Assembly: GCA_964016885.1 (NCBI GenBank)
Contig: OZ024746.1
Coordinates: 46,748,001 to 46,812,000 of the forward strand
Length of the DNA: 64,000 bases
Direction of reading: 5' to 3'
Origin: Eledone cirrhosa
Lineage: Eukaryota
Shown: piece by piece, positions 14,421 through 62,576 of the stretch
How the letters are laid out: every line of letters begins with the position of its first letter
Position numbering within the stretch: position 1 is the first letter of the stretch
Notes under the pieces: generated by a model
Databases searched by the model: none
Seen by the model: the letters and a program-made list of their open reading frames with translations, nothing else
What the model was told of the DNA's origin: nothing
Made by a program: the position numbers and the translations under genes

Positions 14421-14608
14421 GTGACGTGGTTGCCTAAACACTGTACGGCGTAATTCGGGCTGTTTGTTTGTTTACAAACAAACCGAGCATTATAATAGAT
14501 GTTCGGTAAACCGATACGTTCATATATATATATGTGTGCATGTATGTATATATATACATACTACTGTACGTCTGTATACATGTATGTATGTACGTATACA
14601 TACATACA

Positions 14609-14610
<2 letters not shown>
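14421..14610 (+). mobile_element. Partial inverted copy of the 433-nt HHR unit at 36964-37493
   Basis: ggttgcctaaacactgtacggc...tttacaaacaaaccgag...ctactgtacgtctgtataca is the diverged reverse complement of 36970-37145. Confidence 0.8.
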
Positions 14611-14682
<72 letters not shown>

Positions 14683-14728
14683 CGTAAAATAAGAAAATTA
14701 TAGTAATTAACTTACTTACTTAAATTTT

Positions 14729-14810
14729 ACTCCAACTAATTGGTTTCTGAAAGGGGATATACATAGTCTTCAAATGGAGACCATGGAGAATCCTTTCTTC
14801 ATCAGTGAGT
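14729..14810 (-). ncRNA. Type I hammerhead ribozyme in the inverted arm
   Basis: Minus strand: actca-CTGATGA-a-gaaagg...cctttc-a-GAAAC-caatta-GTT-ggagt. Confidence 0.8.
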
Positions 14811-15317
14811 CATTCTCGGCTAAGATTCCTGGCAATACGCGGACACAGGGAACTTATACAAAAATAATTCAGTGGATGGAAAAAAGCAAGCGCGGACTCA
14901 CTGCCTTCCTGGTCAGTGGCAAATTCAAAAGAATCAATCACGTGACATCGAGGTTAATCAGTGATGTGTGGGGTGTTAAAAAGACAGTAGCCAAACTAAT
15001 ACTATACTTTGCTAGCGTAAGTATACATCTGTATAAATATGTTGGTAGATATACTAATTCTTTATAATTAACTCCAAATTATTTTGTTGAGCAATAATTT
15101 GCCTAAATTACTACTATGGTTCATAGTATTAGTTTGGCTACTGTCTTTTTAACACCCCACTCTTCACTGAATAACCTCGATGTCACGTGATTGATTCTTT
15201 TGAATTTGCCACTGACCAGGTAGGCAGTGAGTCCGCGCTTGCTTTTTTCCATCCACTGAATTATTTTTGTATAAGTTCCCTGTGTCCGCGTATTGCCAGG
15301 AGTCTTAGCTGAGAATG

Positions 15318-15399
15318 ACTCCCTGTTGAAGAAATGATTCTCCATGGTCCCCATTTGAAGACTATGTATATCCCCTTTCAGAAACTAATTAGTTGGAGT
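15318..15399 (+). ncRNA. Type I hammerhead ribozyme, second copy with A6U substitution
   Basis: actcc-CTGTTGA-agaaatg...cctttca-GAAAC-taatta-GTT-ggagt. Stem III is the palindrome AACTAATTAGTT. Confidence 0.7.
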
Positions 15400-15683
15400 G
15401 AAATTTAAGTAAGTTAATTACTATAATTTTCTTATTTTACGTGTTTTATATAATTGTTCTACATCTCTTTGTATTGAACCACAAAGTTGCTAAGACAAAA
15501 CCTATATCTTTGCAAGCGTAAGTATACATCTGTATAAATATGTTGGTAGATATACTAATTCTTTATATATATATATATATATATGTGTGTGTTTGTGTGA
15601 GATTGTCCTGCCGATATTTGTATCTTTCACTTAATGTATCCATGTATTTATTTTTTATTTTTTATTTTATCTTTATTTTTATC

Positions 15684-15766
<83 letters not shown>

Positions 15767-15773
15767 TGTGTGT

Positions 15774-15814
<41 letters not shown>

Positions 15815-15902: not shown

Positions 15903-16064
15903 ATCCGGACGCCATGCTTTCCAGCATAGTTACGTCCCTTTACGATCTGAGTTCAAATCCCGCCGAGGTTGACTTTGCCTTTCATCCTTACGGGGTCGAT
16001 AAAATAAAGTACCAGTAATGCACTGCATAATTGCTGGCCTTGTGCCTAAAGTAGAAACAATTAT
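15903..16064 (+). mobile_element. SINE family A
   Basis: B-box gagttcaaatccc followed by the core and tail. Confidence 0.85.
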
Positions 16065-16408: not shown

Positions 16409-16410
<2 letters not shown>

Positions 16411-16597
16411 CGAAGGAAATGTGGTAAGGAACCAGGTGTACCATAACGCACCAAAGTACTCAATACTTAGGGTAGTAGAGTGGTTAATAGGAACGAGTAG
16501 GGCCCCGACGGCTGAGCTCAAGCCGTTTCGACGGCTAATTCAGTCCAGAATTAGCCGTCGAAACGGCTTGAGCTCAGCCGTCGGGGTCCTACTCGTT

Positions 16598-16601
<4 letters not shown>
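16409..16601 (-). mobile_element. 5'-truncated copy of the 37631-38580 element with a fold-back through the HHR
   Basis: Same terminus aacgaaggaaatgtggtaaggaaccagg as 37631 and 42596. Inverted arms 16487-16541 / 16548-16602 contain GAAAC-ggc-ttgagctca-gcc-GTC-gggg. Confidence 0.85.
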
Positions 16602-16652
<51 letters not shown>

Positions 16653-16724
16653 TGAAATTTCCGTGAAGAGTGCTCTATGTAAGTACCAGAGCAAAATTTA
16701 ATGTATAAAAATCAATACAATATA

Positions 16725-16802
16725 ATTACCTCATTACTAGAGGTTTCCCGAATGGGGCGAATACGAAAGAAACGTCTTCATTCGTTCGTCAGACGAGGCA
16801 AT
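16725..16802 (-). ncRNA. Type I hammerhead ribozyme at the PLE 3' end
   Basis: Minus strand: attgcctcgt-CTGACGA-a-cgaatg...cattcg-g-GAAAC-ctcta-GTA-atgaggtaat. Stem I has 10 bp. Confidence 0.85.
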
Positions 16803-17994
16803 ATAAAACATGGGTAAATACTTGGAAAGTCTCATCAAGAAAAGCAAAAAAAAACAAAAAAAATATAGACAAATGAATTAGAATATGAAATATATAATAA
16901 TCTTTAAAGAAATATAGTTAGATGTGTGTGTATGTATGTATATACGCTCACAGATGTGCATATATGTGTATGCACATATGTATACGTATAGTGAAAAAGT
17001 GTGCGTAAATATATAATTTAGGGCAAATGTACCTGTGTGTTTGTAATCTACAGACAAAATAGATACATCATAAGAATATGAAGGCACGCGCATAAACACA
17101 CCTACACCCACGTACACTTATATGCAGAAGTAAAAGAGGTAAGGGAGTGTAATAATTAAAGGAAAGTATCAATCTCGATATATTTATAAAAATGGAACAA
17201 TAATTTAGAAAGAAAAAAATTAAAGAAAAGAAGACAAACAAGGTACATGCATACACACACGTATATCTCACAAAAGAAACGCAAAAATATACATGCCTAT
17301 ATACACACGCACACTTACACATCCATACGTTCGATACGTACACACACACACACACACACACACATACTTACACTCACGCATATTGACCTGTTTGCATGCA
17401 CACGCATAAAAATGAGGATCTAAAAAAAGGGGGAGAAGAAAAAAGAAACAAAACATAAAACCTAGATGTAAAAACACGGATATAAAGAGACATACACCTA
17501 TATATATATATATATATATACGCACGCGCGCGCACATACGTAGTCGCTCATGTACATATATAGAAAGTATACACACATTAAGGCGTTCAGCCACATAGAT
17601 ATAGGGTGTAAAAAACTTGTGGATAAGTAAGTACAAATATAAAATTATAAAATTGTAAGATTGGCTGCGCAAAAATAAAAAATAAAAATAAAAATAAAAA
17701 ATATCTGGAGGGGAAAACGCAAATGACTCGTTTAATCAGTTAGTGAAGGAAATAGGGAAGTAAAAAATGGAAAGTGAAGATATTAGGTAAGTGAATCGGG
17801 AAATAAGGGGGGGGGGGGTTATTGGTGGATGTGAAGTAAAAATTAAAAAAATATATAAAAATGAAAATAAAAATAAAAATAAAAATAAAAATAAAAATAA
17901 AAATAAAAATAAAAATAAAAATAAATGAAATTAATAATAAGGATAAAAATGAAAGTAAATCAGAAAGGGTAATTATAAAGAGAATAATAAGAGT

Positions 17995-18480
17995 TTATGG
18001 AGGATAAGTATCTGAAAGTGTGTTAAGTTTATATGAGCTGGAAAGCAGGTGTGATTTCATGTGTGGGCAACTGGTGAACATTTCCGTCTTTGTGTTCAGG
18101 CAGGTCTTTGGTGATTTAAGATTTTGCAATATCCAATATTTTTCATTTATGCAGAGCGTGCATTTTCTTGTTCCTCTTGCATATTCTTTAGATTGGTTCA
18201 AAATTGACCAATCCAATCTATATTGGATGCCTTGGTCTTTCAAATCCCAAATTCTGCTAGCCAGAGCTGTTGTAAATCTTTTTTCTGGATGTCGAAAGGA
18301 TGCGAGATGTGAGTAATAACGCGTTTTGAATTTGTCTTGCGTCATACCCACATACCGTTCACTGGTGGCTGGATGGTTGTTGCTGATGGTTGTCACTTTA
18401 GCCGCATATACAATGGCTTTGGTGTTGCATTTACCTTGTAATGGGCATTCACTTTTGATTCTACAGGAGCAAGTTTGATA
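17995..18480 (-). pseudogene. PLE GIY-YIG endonuclease coding region
   Basis: ORF 17995..18396 plus an upstream in-frame Cys-rich linker. Confidence 0.85.
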
Positions 18481-19058
18481 TTCTCTAGGTGATTTTTTGT
18501 TGATGATATAGGACTTAATAGGGGTATGGAAATGTTTATCTAGGAGCTCTAGGAATGTTTTGACTACATTAGTTTTAACTGCTAAAGAGTAGGGGGGTGT
18601 GAACCAGATTATTTTGCTTTTCCTGTTTTTATGTTTAATAGTGTTAGTATAATTGGGTATGTATTTAATCGGTTCGCTAAAACCGCTATTTTGGAGGGCT
18701 TTATTATAGTAGGGGGATGCCTTATTAAAAATAGCTTCTGAGGAAGAGAGGGTGGAGATCCTACGGCTAATATTAGGGATAAGGTTTTTAAAAACTATAG
18801 GAGGATGGCAAAGCCTTTATTTATATATTTTAAGTTTTCATTAGGTTTATGGTATGGTTTATAAGAAGCAGTAGGCAAATCTAGGTTTATATCTAGGAAA
18901 TCTACATTGGAAAGATTAGTGTCAATAGTAATTTTAAGATTAAAACTAGCGAAGGTTTTTATTAAGTCTTTCCTTAATCTATCTAAGTTATGGCCTATGG
19001 TGGTATGGGAAATTATTAGACCATCGTCGCGATAAAGCCCAAAAATATGGTTAGGAAA

Positions 19059-20140: not shown

Positions 20141-20430
20141 CGATATTAAACAAATGGAAACTATATTTATAAAACCATATTTATTTCGTTATATATATTT
20201 CTGGGATATCATATTAAAATATGTTATGCCTTCCTCAGACAAAATACAATACATAAGCTGTTTTATAAATAATTAGTGACATACCTTTTAATAATGCAAC
20301 TTCCTTTTAAAAAGTTGATTTGGTATTTTGTCTGAGGAAGGCATAACATATTTTTAATATGATATCCCAGAAATATATATAACGAAATAAATATGGTTTT
20401 ATAAATATAGTTTCCATTTGTTTAATATCG
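20141..20430. repeat. Inverted repeat with ~107-bp arms, each carrying an HHR
   Basis: 20141-20247 is the reverse complement of 20323-20430. Confidence 0.9.
20324..20389 (+). ncRNA. Minimal type I hammerhead ribozyme; mirror copy at 20182-20246 on the minus strand
   Basis: tattttgt-CTGAGGA-agg...ccca-GAAA-tatata-TA-acgaaata. 8-bp stem I and palindromic stem III. Confidence 0.75.
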
Positions 20431-20520
20431 TAAACCTACTCCAGAAACTGTCGAGTGCTTTTATATCAGTTATAAAATATTTACTCGTTGTAACCCAACA
20501 ATCTTAAATAAAACTTTTGC

Positions 20521-20583
<63 letters not shown>

Positions 20584-20690
20584 TATATATATATAAATAT
20601 ATATATATAAATATATATATATAAATATATATAAATATATATATATAAATATATATAATATATATCAAATATATAAGAACCGTAGAGCAA

Positions 20691-20837
20691 ATATTTATTA
20701 AAATGACAGATTAAAGTTTAAGCAAAGAATCGCTGCTTTCACCCTTAACGGGATCTTCTGAAACTGAGTTTCAGAAGATCCCGTTAAGGGTGAAAGTAGC
20801 GATTCTTTGCTTAAACTTTAATCTGTCATTTTAATAA

Positions 20838-48900: not shown

Positions 48901-49367
48901 AAAGGCTCTACAGACACGGGCGCCCGGGTAGGGACCCCGCCAAAAAGATCTGTCCCAGATGCGTGTGCGACGAGGAAACCGTTGCACACGCATTGGTACA
49001 CTGCTCGGGCGCAGCCGATCTGTGGGGCTATGTCGAAAAACTGCTGTCAAGGGTGGGACCGATCCGGTTGACCACCGAGTCTATTGTAATGATCAAGCCG
49101 CCTCCCCCCTTCAAAGATGAAGCAGAGGCGGTGTTTCTGTGCGTAATAGCCATGGCGAAAGAGGTTGTATGGTGGACGCGTCTGAAAGGACTGAGGTCAG
49201 GCACCTTTCTCTCTGGCCAACAACTGGTCCGTTTCTTCCGATATCATTTCGGAAGAAGGATCAGGATGGAGAGAGAGGTGCTGCACCCCAGCCGTTTCTA
49301 TGAAAGATGGGTGACAGTGGCGAGAATGGCCCGTGTGAATGGGCCTTCACTCTACATCAGACTATAG
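45930..49367 (+). CDS. ORF2: APE endonuclease, reverse transcriptase and C-terminal zinc finger (~1145 aa)
   Basis: LNARGL, ICEAR, VGDWN, YLDRFLV, SDHKLV; PGLDGLPYE, FRPITLLN, LDQSKAFDRVDH, RQGCPLS, YADDV; CPRC...ETVAHALVHC. The frame is uninterrupted. Confidence 0.96.
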   Translation: MAMLRVGCLNARGLGSTWKQAMLLNDLRSQRIDVMVICEARISNVRQLAPTFDDFEMHASLCQPGGGGGVVVLLQKHLGLATQMVHMDPEGRLVVLDLGSGKGGAFRLVAAYGPFGSMRPDFFHRLETFLGTSRSLLLVGDWNGILDARWDYVGACPDREGCNSLKGLIGRFDLADRYRLDFPTAPTWTWANRSGSSRSYLDRFLVRIKDKDFLSCPKMRMVGYSDHKLVTCMVNLDRTHRQGPGYWKLNLSLPASRAYRNRISTLVKERLTGAIVNSRWWVSLKREIRVVSIEFSKVLAADRNRKERELIDRVEEAIRSGDVARVLASRTALSQFFDAKHEGCVVRSKIRALGNEGTKAVSWARVTEANSGTKSTIRSLRDLDGRAILEPKQMCEAFQRHFARLFGRGGEPVGNVDFGPYLAGLPRHSDREAKSCEEPISAAEIEDVLSQCGKRKSPGLDGLPYELYLAMLDLFPDLLEAVYCNWQQNGRIPCTVTKGVVTLVRKDENKGDEISNFRPITLLNTELQILAKVLAKRLALVVGNLVGDAQTCAIPSRSIHDNLHLMRYIIERVGNEPGFGGALINLDQSKAFDRVDHGYLDAVLAAAGFGPVFRGWITAMHSSRICSRVKVNGYLSEPFKIARSIRQGCPLSSLLYVLTLEPLLRKLELLQGIPLEPGLRKAVSAYADDVTVMVSTASEIEAVGTLLEEYEKFTGAKLNRDKSIGLQLGTWRGRPMPSDGVVGRWTEGPVKLLGVWFGPDLQVEKNWAEVTNRVFALTQKWASCKLSLKGRAEVANTYIASVIYYRLTVVPCPRETLTKMERALFQFLWKRRAPMVRRSICCQHPSKRGLGMPWLMMRKHALRLRHLYVFLTGQPVWASFVRRTFPRLVSLTELQSWVKQRPRKLGAWHTECAQALTALWQADPVISGDSTATFYRGLVRSRCDDALGEALDMEEDELASLFGRTFSPGPMDNFQKSLAWQCYRGALPVRERLYRHGRPGRDPAKKICPRCVCDEETVAHALVHCSGAADLWGYVEKLLSRVGPIRLTTESIVMIKPPPPFKDEAEAVFLCVIAMAKEVVWWTRLKGLRSGTFLSGQQLVRFFRYHFGRRIRMEREVLHPSRFYERWVTVARMARVNGPSLYIRL

Positions 49368-49700: not shown

Positions 49701-51299
49701 CTAAATATATATATATATATAGATATATATATAAACATAATGTTTACTTCAACAAAAGATTTCAAACCTTTTCGAAATCAATTTTCAGGTGTCCTTATTC
49801 ATAGCTTGATATTCATATATCTAAGATAAGGTTCAAACCATTTTAAAATTAAGGATAGTAATCACCAAAAGGTGACTTGTAGGTTTGTAGATTTAATTCG
49901 TCAACCAGGTTTAGCACCACGTCCCCCATGAGCATTTTATCGGAGCCTACTTTGTTGCAAACATAGGAGCTCTATTTCAGGTCTTGGGATAATTTCATCC
50001 CTTCGCCCAACTATTATCAAAAAACCTCTAAAAGGTCATAGGTTTTGTCCTTCTTATTGCCACAAAGCGATTCAAAACTGCAAAAGACATCATTTCCTTG
50101 ATTTAGATATATAGATTCCTCGTTTGAAATCGATCTAGGAACTGCCAGGAATATAATCACCTGATGATGCTCTTCGATTAAAAAGATCGAAAAGTTTATA
50201 TGTCAATTTTGTAAATATACACTGTGTGTTAGGAAAATTATAGCCTACTTAACAACCACTAATCTCAGACTTGTAGATATTTAATATATAATTTATAGAC
50301 TTCACTTATGAATATGTATCTAAGGTTAGTATTTTATTAATTCATATGAATGTATAATTTAGGCTTATACAAGTAGGTGCCAAAACCTTCTTCACTTAAT
50401 CTGCTTTCTCAAACTGTTCAGCAACCATCTGTTTATATGAGTGAGTGATGAAACGTTAAACCGTGAGACTTTCACATCCTATATATATACAATACAACTT
50501 TCTCCGGCTTAGCCTGTTCCCCCCCTTTTGGAACTTTCCCCCGTTGATGGGCGTGAGCCCGAAATATTGGGATTAAATCTCCACTACGGTAACCCTTCTA
50601 CCTTTGTTTTGTTTTCATTTTCATTTTCACTTTCTCCTATTTCTCACTCACTTCTTACCTCGAGATTTCCCATCTGCATTGTTGTGGCTTTCTAAACTAC
50701 ATATTTTACACATTTCACAATGCTTCAAGCAAACTTTAACACCCTCATATATATATATATACATATATATATGTATATATGTATGTATGTGTGTGTGTGT
50801 GTATATATGTGTGTGTGTAAGTATGTGTGTGTGTGTGTGTGTGTTTAATCCTAATACATGTATATATTCGAAACAATCTGAAATTTTATTACTTTAATAT
50901 TGAATTAAAAACGTTATCCGAAAGTTTGAAACGCGTATCAGAAAATCGGATACCAATCAAAGAGGAAATGAATCGATCCCACCGTATTTCATATACGGTA
51001 CTTAACGTTTATAATAACATTGAATTAATTCTAGCCATGAGAGTATTATTTGGTAGGTGGAAATTGTGCAGACGCTCGTCGGAGGTAATTGTCAGTGATT
51101 CGTTAGAAACTATTCAGAAAATGTTTTCAGGATTATTTTTATAGGAATTAATATCCAAGGATATTGTTATATATGGGGATGGTTATTTTGCCAATTTGGC
51201 CAATAAAAGCAAATACTGATTCGCTTTCAATTCAGCATTATTATAATTAGTTATTGGTTATTATCGTTTCTTTTATCTTCTCTCGTATGTTCTACTGAT

Positions 51300-52090
51300 C
51301 AGAATTAACCCTCTGTGCTGATAGGAACTGTAGTGTGTAAAGTAAACCCACAGGTAAACTGCAAATATAGGAATGCAGTCTGTAAGATAAGATGTACAAA
51401 GTGACGATGCAGAACCCCGAGGGCGACATATATAGGGGAGATAACCCGTAGCATAGGAGAGGGAATAAAAGAATACTGGGGAGAGGTCAAGGGAGAGAAA
51501 GGATCGTCAGTGAAATACCAACATGATAAACTAGAACATGGGGACACTATAGCTAAATAAAGGTCTTATCCCACATAAAACCGTAGAAAATCTACACATA
51601 AACTCGTAGAAAAATTAGGGAGACCACTAATATAATAGAAAGTAGACCGAGCCTCAACATAAAACACACATGGAATAGTAACACCCACCTCACTAACTAA
51701 CGACTGAAGACAATAGAACATATGAGGGAAAGAATGACATAGATACAAACAGTGGTATATAGAAACCCACACGCACTTGCCAAACACATAGACACACATA
51801 CAAAGGCACAGACACAAACATACACACAGACAAGAAAATGTACCACAGAAAGACATGAGGAAGTAAACAGAATAAAGCCAGAAAGAAAATGAAATACAGA
51901 GAAGAACAACAAATAGTCATTGAGGAGGTCACAGAATGTATGACGAAAGAGCTTTGGCGAAATAACCAACAACTAATATTAATAAAGCTAAAGTGAATGT
52001 CAACAGTGCGTGTGTTTTATTGGTGACATTGTCAAAATGACTATCCCCAAATATAATAATATCTGTTTCAACACAACACACGATTCCCCA
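51300..52090 (+). mobile_element. Degenerate 3' fragment of a PLE family 2 relative: GIY-YIG and pLTR
   Basis: NPQVNCKYRNAVCKIRCTK*RCRTPRATYIGEITRSIGEGIKEYWGEVKG aligns with 34161-34349. An inverted copy of its tail lies at about 51150-51260. Confidence 0.8.
51916..51958 (+). ncRNA. Minimal hammerhead ribozyme, decayed (C3U), homologous to 824-866
   Basis: gtca-TTGAGGA-g-gtcaca-gaatg-tatgac-GAAA-gagc-TT-tggc. Confidence 0.65.
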
Positions 52091-52260
52091 TCAAAACAAA
52101 TACATAAGCACAATATTCAAATGAGCTTTTGATTCCAGAGTCGGGCCAGATCGATATAGATCGAACCTAGATCTGAGCAACCGATTGCGTCACAACTCAT
52201 AACGTAATAAGCCTAGCACTTCGTCTATTACTCAATAAACGTAATAAAGCGCTAGACTTG

Positions 52261-58976: not shown

Positions 58977-59040
58977 CCTCACCATCCTCTCAGGAATAAG
59001 TGGGCAAAATCCTTGGTGCAATACTTGCTAATATTATATA

Positions 59041-59696
59041 TATATTATAATAGAATATAAAAGAAACACGAACACAGATATATAGATATATGTGTTCAAA
59101 TCGCAAAGGACCAGATTCGCTAAGGTGAAAAGAATACTAACTATAGACAATTGGGTTCGCTTGTCTCAATTTAAGAAAAAATTAAGAAAATAAATACAAA
59201 CCGGAATTGTGGTAACTACCAATCACCCAGACAACTTGTTGTTGTTTCGCAAAGTTAATTGTGAATAGAAATACTAATCCAAGCTCATCAGTGGGTGATG
59301 AATTAGTTTCCTAGACACATCTATGTATGCTATATATAAAATATAAAACAGCGCACATGGCATCCTAGCGAGTCTCACAAACCCACACCACTAAAAATAG
59401 CAGCCAGGTTTACTTGACATTTGAAATAGCTCAACAAATTAACGGAGCCGAATATATTAAATGTATATATTGAGTTAGGAACTCAAAATAGTCTCTTACA
59501 ATAAAATAGCTCTAAGAAAGAGATATTTCTGAGCCGTATATTATAATAGAATATAAAAGAAAAACGAACACAGATATATAGATATATGTGTTCAAATCGT
59601 AAGGGACCAGATTCGCTAAGGTGAAAAGAATACTAACTATAGACAATTGGGTTCGCTTGTCTCAATTTAAGAAAAAATCAAGAAAATAAATACAAA
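59041..59696 (-). mobile_element. ORF-less 496-nt HHR unit with 160-nt terminal redundancy
   Basis: 59041-59200 recurs at 59537-59696 with about 4 substitutions. One HHR lies between the repeats. TA-flanked. Confidence 0.88.
59222..59299 (-). ncRNA. Canonical type I hammerhead ribozyme
   Basis: Minus strand: atcaccca-CTGATGA-gc...gc-GAAAC-aac-aacaa-gtt-GTC-tgggtgat. 8-bp stem I and 5-bp stem III. Confidence 0.9.
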
Positions 59697-61100
59697 TATA
59701 TATATATATATATATGTATATTTAATACATTAACAGAGAAAGCTTTAAGCAATACTCCGACCGGCTTCCGTCTCACTCAACAAACATTAGGATATACCTG
59801 AGTATAATCCAAATTATACTTTTGGGGTGCTAACTATACGTATTTTGCGGATAGCCAGTTGTATTATTTTATGAGACATAATTAAATACACAGGGTTAGG
59901 CGACGACGACGACCAAGAAGAAGAAGAAGAAGAAGAAGGAGGAGGAGAAGAAGAAGAAGAAGAATGATTATGAAGATGATTATGGTGATGATGAAGAACA
60001 AAGAGGAGGTAGTAAAAGAGGAGGAGGAGGAGCAAATATAAAGCAAGAAAAATTTAAGTCTCCACAAATAAAAGAGAAGGATGCTTTGCTATGTTTCTAC
60101 TGCCATTACATAGTACCCGGTTGGTTCTTTAGACGTGTGTAGATGTGTTTCTTTGCCTGTTTATAGTTGTACTTGTCTGTGTGAGTGAATACATGTGAGG
60201 TTTATCTGTACACATGTACAATCATGCACATGTGTGTGTGTCTCTTTGTGGTGCAAAGTTTGACAACGTTGACGTGTTAACATGCCTTTCAGCATGCATA
60301 TGTTCCTAACACATATGCAAATGTTAAGCACGTGCATATATATATATACACACAGCAACGCATACATATGAGCGTATACACAGATATTAATCAATCTACA
60401 TCCACACGCTCACATGTTAGTATGTTCAGTTGAGGAATTTAACCTTTATATTTTACTGGTTTCAGTAATTGGACTGGGCCCATGCTGGAACACCTCTTTT
60501 TGCTGGAGTCTTATACATATACTTTCTTTTAAGAGAAGTATGTGTGTGTGTGTGTGTGTGTGTTTATAAGCATGTGTGTATTAATATAGCAATGTTTGTC
60601 GGGTAGATGTGTGTATGTACGTAATACGTGTATATAACTATGTGTATTTGTGTGTGTGTGTTTGCGGGGAATGGCATTTGTACAAATTTATAGGTGTGTA
60701 TGTGTGTATGTACATATGTATGCTCATGAGTTGGTGATCACATGCGAGTCTGTAACTACAAATTGTAGTTTTTTGTGTAGCCACGAGTCAACCAGCAAAT
60801 CTAGGACGAGACCAACTGTATTTTGGGGGAATTTATGCAATAATTTATCTAATGTGCCCTTCCTTGTTAAAAAATAAGATTGGTCTGATTTGAGCAAGAT
60901 TTCAGTCAGAGTGAGCTATTACGTGGAGGCTACCTTACTGGCTTGTGTGTCAACAGGTTGTGTATGTCTGTATATATATGTGTTCGTGATGTGTGTGTGT
61001 GTGTGTGTGCGTGCGCGCGTCTGTGTGTGTGTGTGTGCCAATCGAGTAATTATAAATGATTGAACACCTTTCCAATCATTCCTACCTACACATAGTCACA

Positions 61101-61661: not shown

Positions 61662-62272
61662 TAACATGTGGAGAAGGAACACACGAGTGGAAATATATAT
61701 ATATATATGTAAATAGGGAGAAAAAACGATTATTAGGAAGAAAAAAATTTTTTTTTTCCTTTATATTTTTCTCTTTTTTCTGGGTTAGAAAATGTTTAAC
61801 TATGTGTGTAGTGTTATGGTATTTGTTAATTTATTTATTAATTAACAATAGCATTTATTTATTTAATAATTATCAATTGATATATATATATACATATCTC
61901 TATATAAAATGTTGTATATACTCTACTAATGTATTGAGTATCATACTTAGTGTGGTTATCGCCGTTTGAAGCCGGGACTCACACATATGAATATATATAT
62001 AGAGATTTTCTTTTCAAATATATATATATAGAGAGAGAGATTTTTTTTTTTTTTCTTTGATAATGTTGGAATCCCAAATACAGAAAATAAAGATATCAAC
62101 AGTCGATCGCTATAAATAATGGCTCAGAAAATCGGGTCAAGTTCAGCTAGAGACGGACAAACGTGGCAAGTAGCCGCTACGGAGAATCGAACTCAAATAT
62201 CGTACGAGTGTAAGAGATATAAAGAGTACCATACTCCGTAGTAACTGCCGACACTCTTTTCTGTCTCTCAGG

Positions 62273-62407
62273 ATATTTCAACCAATTTTCTAAGCTATTA
62301 TTTATAGTGATATCCTGCGTTTGGGATTCTCACATTTTCAAATTTTACATTCACCCAGCGCTACAATAATTTATTATATATATATATGCGTGTGTGTGTA
62401 TGTGTAT

Positions 62408-62443
<36 letters not shown>

Positions 62444-62570
62444 ATACACATACACACACGCATATATATATATAATAAGTTATTGTAGCGCTGGGTGAAT
62501 GTAAAATTTGAAAATGTGAGAATCCCAAACGCAGGATATCACTATAAATAATAGCTTAGAAAATTGGTTG

Positions 62571-62576
<6 letters not shown>
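62273..62576. repeat. Palindrome with ~140-bp arms centred on (TA)n
   Basis: atatttcaaccaattttctaag...tgtgtattatgt / acataatacaca...cttagaaaattggttgaaatat. Confidence 0.95.

Follow-up and report, generated by a model that had tools for sequence, protein, structure and literature searches.

Animal retrozymes have been proposed to be non-autonomous derivatives of Penelope-like elements (PLEs) that arise from PLE pLTRs and measure 51-972 bp (Li, Clavereau, Pollet 2026, bioRxiv 10.64898/2026.07.22.740005), and copying of RNA circles over more than one unit had been proposed earlier (PMC4209133; Discussion of PMC7229834). So far, the link between PLEs and retrozymes has been argued from their co-occurrence and from pLTR similarity. 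Among PLEs, the Hydra and Naiad elements target (TA)n (PMC8557442), and the head-to-head arrangement, set against tail-to-tail, is described as the most frequent inverted form (Arkhipova et al. 2013, PMC3846280). The full mechanism of tandem and inverted PLE structures is named as an open question in PMC8557442. In vitro, the PAc Poseidon element uses two fixed internal initiation sites that are non-homologous to the cut DNA (Frangieh et al. 2024, PMC11167929).

Here we describe a locus in a 64,000-nt stretch of Eledone cirrhosa DNA (contig OZ024746.1; the window, hereafter), which is AT-rich and full of (TA)n and retroelement debris. The locus consists of a 501-nt unit, its terminal redundancy, a head-to-head arm, (TA)n flanks and a hammerhead of the dimer type; it has diverged relatives in public sequencing runs, with a head-to-tail joint in two of them. 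We consider it fairly probable that this is a single, somewhat decayed insertion of a non-autonomous PLE of the non-LTR retrozyme type, whose protein-free unit of ~500-520 nt a PLE protein copied out of a multimeric or circular RNA, starting at an internal site. Each of these features has already been published singly; the contribution of the locus is the combination of a self-closing, retrozyme-like unit with a PLE insertion signature. The features of the insertion are as follows, with coordinates given in the window.

14612..14677, no strand: (TA)33 microsatellite, the left target flank
14672..15005, minus strand: inverted 5'-truncated arm, the reverse complement of 15123-15452
14729..14810, minus strand: type I hammerhead with an intact CUGAUGA core
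15002..15006, no strand: head-to-head (5'-5') junction with a 1-nt gap
15007..15507, plus strand: one 501-nt unit, 34% GC
15105..15135, plus strand: hairpin (-7.6 kcal/mol); the inverted arm begins at 15123, the start of the hairpin's 3' side
15318..15399, plus strand: type I minimal-type hammerhead, with predicted cleavage after 15394
15383..15394, plus strand: helix III, a 12-nt perfect palindrome, AACUAAUUAGUU
15447..15452, plus strand: internal TA run at which the inverted arm ends (end E1, 58 nt past the predicted cleavage site)
15508..15567, plus strand: start of a second round (terminal redundancy), 60 nt, ending on TATA at 15564-15567 (end E2)
15564..15584, no strand: (TA)n right target flank, a 21-nt TA run

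The direct repeat pairs 15007-15066 with 15508-15567 at a spacing of 501 nt (59/60 identical, 98%), and ~1.12 units are present at the locus. A preliminary description of this DNA had the period right and the repeat 2 nt too short. It had also reported an inverted copy with a second hammerhead at 14677-15005 (330 nt); the copy is real, but it extends over 14672-15005. The inverted arm measures 334 nt against 330 nt in the unit, from which it differs by 13 substitutions and one 4-nt indel, and the outer 6 nt of its 3' end overlap the (TA)33 run at 14612-14677. At the junction, a 4-nt overlap, CTAT, is common to the inverted arm and to the sequence preceding the second round (15502-15505). The two outer ends fall at different internal TA spots, as had been noted, namely the runs at 15447-15452 and 15564-15567; they lie 115 nt apart, E2 being 173 nt past the predicted cleavage site. 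The 5' start of the long arm (15503-15507 / 15002-15006) is also at an internal TA run, placing three of the four breakpoints of the insertion on TA runs. No target-site duplication is discernible at the (TA)n flanks.

The same description took the arrangement to be tail-to-tail, and this must be reversed. If the ribozyme strand is taken as the RNA strand, the 5' ends meet at 15005/15006 and the 3' ends face outward toward (TA)n, which is the head-to-head form. The attribution to a Penelope-type insertion into (TA)n is supported by the (TA)n on both sides and by the head-to-head arm. The hairpin at 15105-15135, beside the start of the inverted arm, echoes the palindromes described at inverted junctions in PMC3846280. 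More broadly, the anatomy agrees with that published for insertions of EN+ PLEs (Hydra, Neptune and Naiad; PMC3846280, PMC8557442): a partial tandem, an adjacent head-to-head and 5'-truncated inverted copy, an extra tail at one end, two different 3' ends, a (TA)n target without a clear target-site duplication, a hairpin at the inversion point and a palindromic, dimer-type hammerhead. It departs from these insertions in lacking an RT/EN ORF, in having a unit that closes on itself, and in extending 115 nt past the short arm where theirs extend 30-40 nt.

No RT or GIY-YIG ORF is present within the 501-nt unit, which is in this sense non-autonomous; read circularly, its longest stop-free stretches are 45 codons (ribozyme strand) and 87 codons (opposite strand). 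Folded as a circle, the unit reaches -105.4 kcal/mol (z -3.4), and none of 40 shuffles was equally low. A pattern scan turned up no Pol III A box and one B-box-like match, on the minus strand. The unit resembles the metazoan non-LTR retrozymes (Cervera and de la Pena 2020, PMC7229834; preprint 10.64898/2026.07.22.740005) in being protein-free with one type I hammerhead and a GC content below 45%, in its apparent head-to-tail continuity and dispersed monomer-type copies, and in having a PLE as the proposed mobiliser. At 501 nt, it lies inside the preprint's 51-972 bp range and above the typical 150-450 bp. The ribozyme here is of the minimal PLE kind, whereas theirs is canonical with loop-loop contacts; the locus also holds 1.12 units with no array seen, and carries a PLE-style inverted arm. 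By definition, a retrozyme is a non-coding unit of a few hundred nucleotides with a GC content below 50%, as is this one at 501 nt and 34%. Judged from its sequence, membership among the retrozymes is likely.

Hammerheads were called with a custom type I descriptor, and the ribozyme assignment rests on this descriptor together with the family data given below. Across the whole window, the descriptor found 13 positions with at most one core mismatch, three of them with a perfect core, the inverted copy included. When the inverted arm was shuffled 2000 times with dinucleotides preserved, no match as good arose, and 1000 shuffles of the unit gave 2. The two ribozymes proposed earlier are confirmed; the forward one lies at 15318-15399, and the inverted one is placed here at 14729-14810 on the minus strand. 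Rfam gave no match in the window at the gathering cutoff, and at E <= 10 none of its 38 matches in 14500-15800 was a hammerhead, these being microsatellite-driven miRNA and other weak matches. Free folding of the ribozyme regions alone was no better than that of shuffles (z -0.33 and -1.28).

The forward hammerhead has stem I ACUCC/GGAGU, the core CUGUUGA (A6 changed to U), GAAAC and a GUU cleavage triplet ending at 15394, with one mismatch in stem II and an extra base on either side of that stem. In the inverted copy, the core is accompanied by a 6-bp stem II and an A2.1-G1.1 mismatch at the first stem I pair, and the helix III palindrome is broken (self-duplex -2.6 kcal/mol). The intact palindrome of the forward copy, with loop III (UAAUUA, not UAUAUA) inside it, is predicted to form no monomer hairpin (0.0 kcal/mol) and a self-duplex of -10.8 kcal/mol, which suggests a dimer-type ribozyme; dimer-type PLE hammerheads have been described with such a palindromic helix III (PMC4209133). 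Further likenesses to the PLE hammerheads of that report are the long helix II, the 5-bp helix I and the base between positions 9 and 10.1. The G10.1-C11.1 pair is present as well, and a further A precedes G12, whereas in the published minimal PLE hammerhead consensus G12 follows directly. The two hammerheads are encoded on opposite strands and so cannot pair with each other within a single transcript. Each copy also carries damaging changes, and to judge from these the locus is probably catalytically dead.

A search of public sequencing runs listed nine runs, six of them containing the element, across three studies, and none matched half of the words. No RNA run was among the listed runs containing the element, and the search has no bearing on expression. 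Relatives were aligned to the unit from four of the nine listed runs (X1, X7, X5 and X6), yielding 1740 contigs from X1, 4481 reads from X7, 46 from X5 and 8 from X6, most of them less than 95% alike; their summed read depth does not equal copy number. These relatives cover 30 of 30 bins of the unit in X1, X7 and X5, and 21 of 30 in X6. Uniqueness of the sequence, which had been put forward as evidence that would count against the element, is contradicted by these data: the 1740 X1 contigs and 4481 X7 reads represent a multicopy family with many variants. Exact-pattern scans of metagenome contigs, viral contigs and prokaryote genomes returned no matches.

The family majority restores parts of the ribozyme. 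At 15326, an A that completes CUGAUGA is read in 52/55 and 35/40 X7 reads, in keeping with the intact consensus core proposed in the preliminary description, and the majority base at 15335 restores stem II (35/50 and 28/33). The CUGANGA/GAAA/NUH core is intact in the inverted arm, and the forward copy deviates from it by A6U. Among the 40 family variant sites listed, out of 202 rows, there are six at which the inverted arm agrees with the majority and the forward arm departs from it. Both arms share minority variants, for example at 15129, 15219, 15288, 15298 and 15303, and both are without an insert of ~22 nt at 15230 that many relatives carry. The shared minority variants, taken with the private changes of each arm, fit a single template followed by independent decay. 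For the 4-nt indel between the arms, the longer form is present in 11 X1 contigs. With so many relatives carrying the ~22-nt insert, the family seems to have two size classes; a pair differing by a 20-nt indel is reported for coral retrozymes (PMC7229834).

A joint leading back from 15517 to 15051 is present in one record each of X5 and X6, two of the four runs aligned, and this suggests that relatives run head-to-tail; both are low-coverage runs, the intervening letters are identical, and only ~11-17 nt are unique to the upstream side. No such joint was listed for X1, the best-matching run. Active retrozymes are recognised by at least two hammerhead units in a row, to be set beside the 1.12 units here and the go-back joint in two of four runs. 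Neither the locus nor the run data showed a two-hammerhead dimer or longer array on one strand. Four opposite-strand joints at other positions in the run data indicate that the inner breakpoints, that is, the inversion points, vary. One X1 contig (record 4) appears from its sequence to be a second head-to-head copy, with an arm from 15400 reaching 15446, next to E1. At 15452, T is the family base in 890 of 912 cases, and in the family majority the TA match at E1 would be 4-5 nt. We considered X7 read pile-ups at 15206, 15259, 15262, 15425, 15452 and 15560 as possible element ends and rejected them, since all six, of 11, that were listed coincide with AATT sites and, in a RAD-seq library, look like restriction cuts.

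The preliminary description held that the ends are set by microhomology with the (TA)n target. The redundancy of the unit reveals what the template carries past each end, so that an assembly of this animal would permit a clean test of target microhomology in PLE priming. The TA overlaps at the outer ends are 6 nt (E1) and 4 nt (E2), with a joint P of ~0.002-0.003; the unit contains 10 TA runs, and a random unit/(TA)n junction shows at least 4 nt of apparent overlap in 5.5% of cases. As a comparison set, a self-BLAST of the window supplied one redundant unit and six further inverted pairs that adjoin (TA)n, all with a known template past the end; PLE origin is not proven for any of the six pairs, and a 69% pair (62106-62311) was excluded. 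The overlaps at these ends are 0, 3, 0, 4, 7, 4 and 5 nt. A TA match of at least 4 nt is hence found at six of nine informative ends in the window (element nulls 0-15% each), and two of the nine have none. The P value for six of nine is 1e-7 with element-specific nulls, and 8e-5 or 6e-4 if no null is allowed below 0.10 or 0.15, respectively; when the element's own two ends are set aside, four of seven reach 4 nt (P 4e-5, or 0.003 and 0.012 with the same two floors). TA matches are thus enriched and not required. A further family in the window (family C) has the same outer base against (TA)n in all three copies (16410, 37632 and 42596). The microhomology proposal is in part supported, with the two ends without a match and the fixed end of family C weighing against it.

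These data bear directly on an alternative for which we judge the chances to be just short of even, namely that initiation takes place at sites fixed within each family (here E1 and E2, the published "tail"). The TA matches would then have evolved at those sites, or would have arisen later through deletion or slippage that brought an internal TA run against the flank. Outer ends that differ from each other have been published as the "tail" pattern (PMC8557442), two initiation sites non-homologous to the target were found for Poseidon in vitro (PMC11167929), and both family C and the two unmatched ends are as fixed sites would have it. The distance of 115 nt between E1 and E2 is harder to accommodate, the published tail being 30-40 nt (PMC8557442), as are the six of nine ends with at least 4 nt of TA match, even with nulls floored at 0.10. 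The X1 contig with its arm from 15400 to 15446 fits fixed sites and TA-guided ends alike. Our locus would share with PAc Poseidon (PMC11167929) internal initiation on RNA, AT-rich targets and two 3' ends; the PAc sites are non-homologous to the cut DNA, whereas both ends here have a 4-6 nt TA match. Between fixed sites and a TA-guided choice among preferred sites, we regard the balance as about even. Other alternatives concern the identity of the unit itself. It could be a remnant of an autonomous Penelope-like element, namely its 3' repeat (pLTR plus tail), surviving as a short partial tandem that is truncated at the 5' side and has an inverted arm; the 501-nt period would then be an accident of truncation. 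Truncation at the 5' end affects most PLE copies, hammerheads commonly occur solo (PMC4209133), several palindromic stumps lie between (TA)n in the window, and a hammerhead at 16792 (minus strand), downstream of a Hydra-like EN ORF, has the identical layout, with an extra base on either side of stem II. We nevertheless think this origin unlikely. Diverged contigs bridge 15066/15067, where a private truncation would fall (X1 record 1, 15051-15162; X5 record 9, 15008-15084; X6 record 17, 15014-15162), and the head-to-tail joint occurs in two runs (X5 and X6). Moreover, most of the high-agreement loose ends, among 24 listed, resemble, by eye, diverged neighbouring unit sequence; with 247 more unlisted, other copies may still be linked to an ORF. 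It is very improbable that the locus was created by faulty assembly, or that unique DNA was duplicated locally and resembles a ribozyme by chance, even though palindromes beside microsatellites are prone to assembly error and Rfam is silent. The arms differ at 13 sites and by an indel whose longer form recurs in X1 contigs, the motif beats shuffles, and the thousands of related records in the run data refute this reading in the main.

On the reading that we prefer, a retrozyme-type, non-autonomous PLE, tandem copies would be transcribed, and paired hammerheads would then process the transcripts to RNA that is unit-length or circular. Acting in trans, a Penelope-type RT/GIY-YIG protein would nick (TA)n and prime reverse transcription inside this RNA at E2, and copying of 561 nt, just over one round, would account for the 60-nt redundancy. 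The same event may also have produced the inverted arm: the cDNA could have folded back at the CTAT overlap next to the hairpin, or a second cDNA could have been primed at E1. This arm would join the target's other end at a TA run. Priming or joining at preferred sites is probably aided by short TA matches, which are not obligatory. Both ribozyme copies were probably inactivated afterwards, by mutations in each arm.

A more general proposal, which we offer tentatively and consider somewhat unlikely, is that several families of ~500-nt hammerhead RNA circles exist in this genome and are reverse-transcribed by a Penelope-type enzyme that targets (TA)n and starts at variable internal TA runs, which pair with the nicked microsatellite. 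If so, the insertions would be circularly permuted and redundant at their termini, with head-to-head arms built anew each time, and they would be direct structural evidence for animal retrozymes using PLE machinery on a circular or multimeric template, by a homology-primed route unlike the non-homologous initiation of Poseidon. If the ends prove fixed, the locus represents one more non-autonomous PLE family. Other such elements are MRC1 and the non-autonomous Chlamys elements of Chlamydomonas (PMC8557442), which are alike in being non-coding, head-to-tail, pLTR-forming, microsatellite-targeting and moved in trans. Most Chlamys elements are described as being without canonical hammerheads, and they target (C)n or (CA)n; the Chlamydomonas elements resemble the 3' end of their partner, a similarity not found here within the window. 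In the window, the unit has no similarity to the flanks of PLE-like ORFs and no matching autonomous partner, its other matches being only weak, AT-rich ones (E >= 0.09).

We found no published account of retrozyme-like units with inverted arms or target microhomology; this search was incomplete, and supplements, subscription papers and Repbase/Dfam, which were outside its scope, may already list the family. The literature search found nothing on cephalopod retrozymes, and the main text of an Octopus vulgaris repeat paper contains neither "ribozyme" nor "hammerhead" (PMC13282606). The word "inverted" is absent from the main text of the 2020 retrozyme paper (PMC7229834) and occurs in the preprint (10.64898/2026.07.22.740005) only within a reference title.

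The window holds a second non-coding hammerhead unit, at 58977-59697 (minus strand) between (TA)n runs, with a period of 496 nt. Its redundancy is 159 nt (59041-59199 against 59537-59695, 97%), and it has a 5-nt TA overlap at its 3' end. The hammerhead, at 59291, has an intact core, and its 5-bp helix III and 7-bp helix I suggest that it may be active as a monomer. The sole similarity between the 501-nt and 496-nt units is a weak match of 47 nt (E 0.057), so the design recurs in an apparently unrelated family. The six further inverted pairs beside (TA)n lie at 365-613, 16410-16599, 20141-20523, 20676-20837, 40249-41130 and 62277-62572; in each, one arm has a tail of ~20-90 nt or more, and several are near-perfect hairpins with little or no spacer.

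A probable 5'-truncated PLE of the Hydra clade occupies 16649-19057 (minus strand), assuming that its parts form one element. It includes a GIY-YIG-like ORF (17995-18816, minus strand) with a CxCX5C linker, as described for Hydra PLEs, which insert into (TA)n (PMC8557442). Pfam gave no family for this EN-like ORF, and in the Atlas GIY-YIG appeared only in lower-ranked clusters (28-35% of members). Downstream of the ORF is a long, microsatellite-rich region, and the hammerhead at 16792, whose core is intact, lies between the ORF and the (TA)n at 16600-16648. An RT ORF at 34392-35975 matches RVT_1 of Pfam below cutoff, and together the two ORFs are candidates for the mobilising machinery. Related PLE-like pieces are found at 669-930, 33387-35975 and 50845-52259, with hammerhead-like motifs at 862 (minus strand) and 51920 (plus strand). 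A repeat at 15952-16064 gives the window the look of octopus DNA. The window also contains a LINE ORF at 45906-49367 (plus strand) with endonuclease, RT and zf-RVT domains (1153 codons from stop to stop), preceded by a 437-codon ORF at 44592-45905. Finally, the repeat at 14427-14611, to the left of (TA)33, has an inverted relative near 37058-37144 (region 37058-37520) with similar TA-rich flanks.
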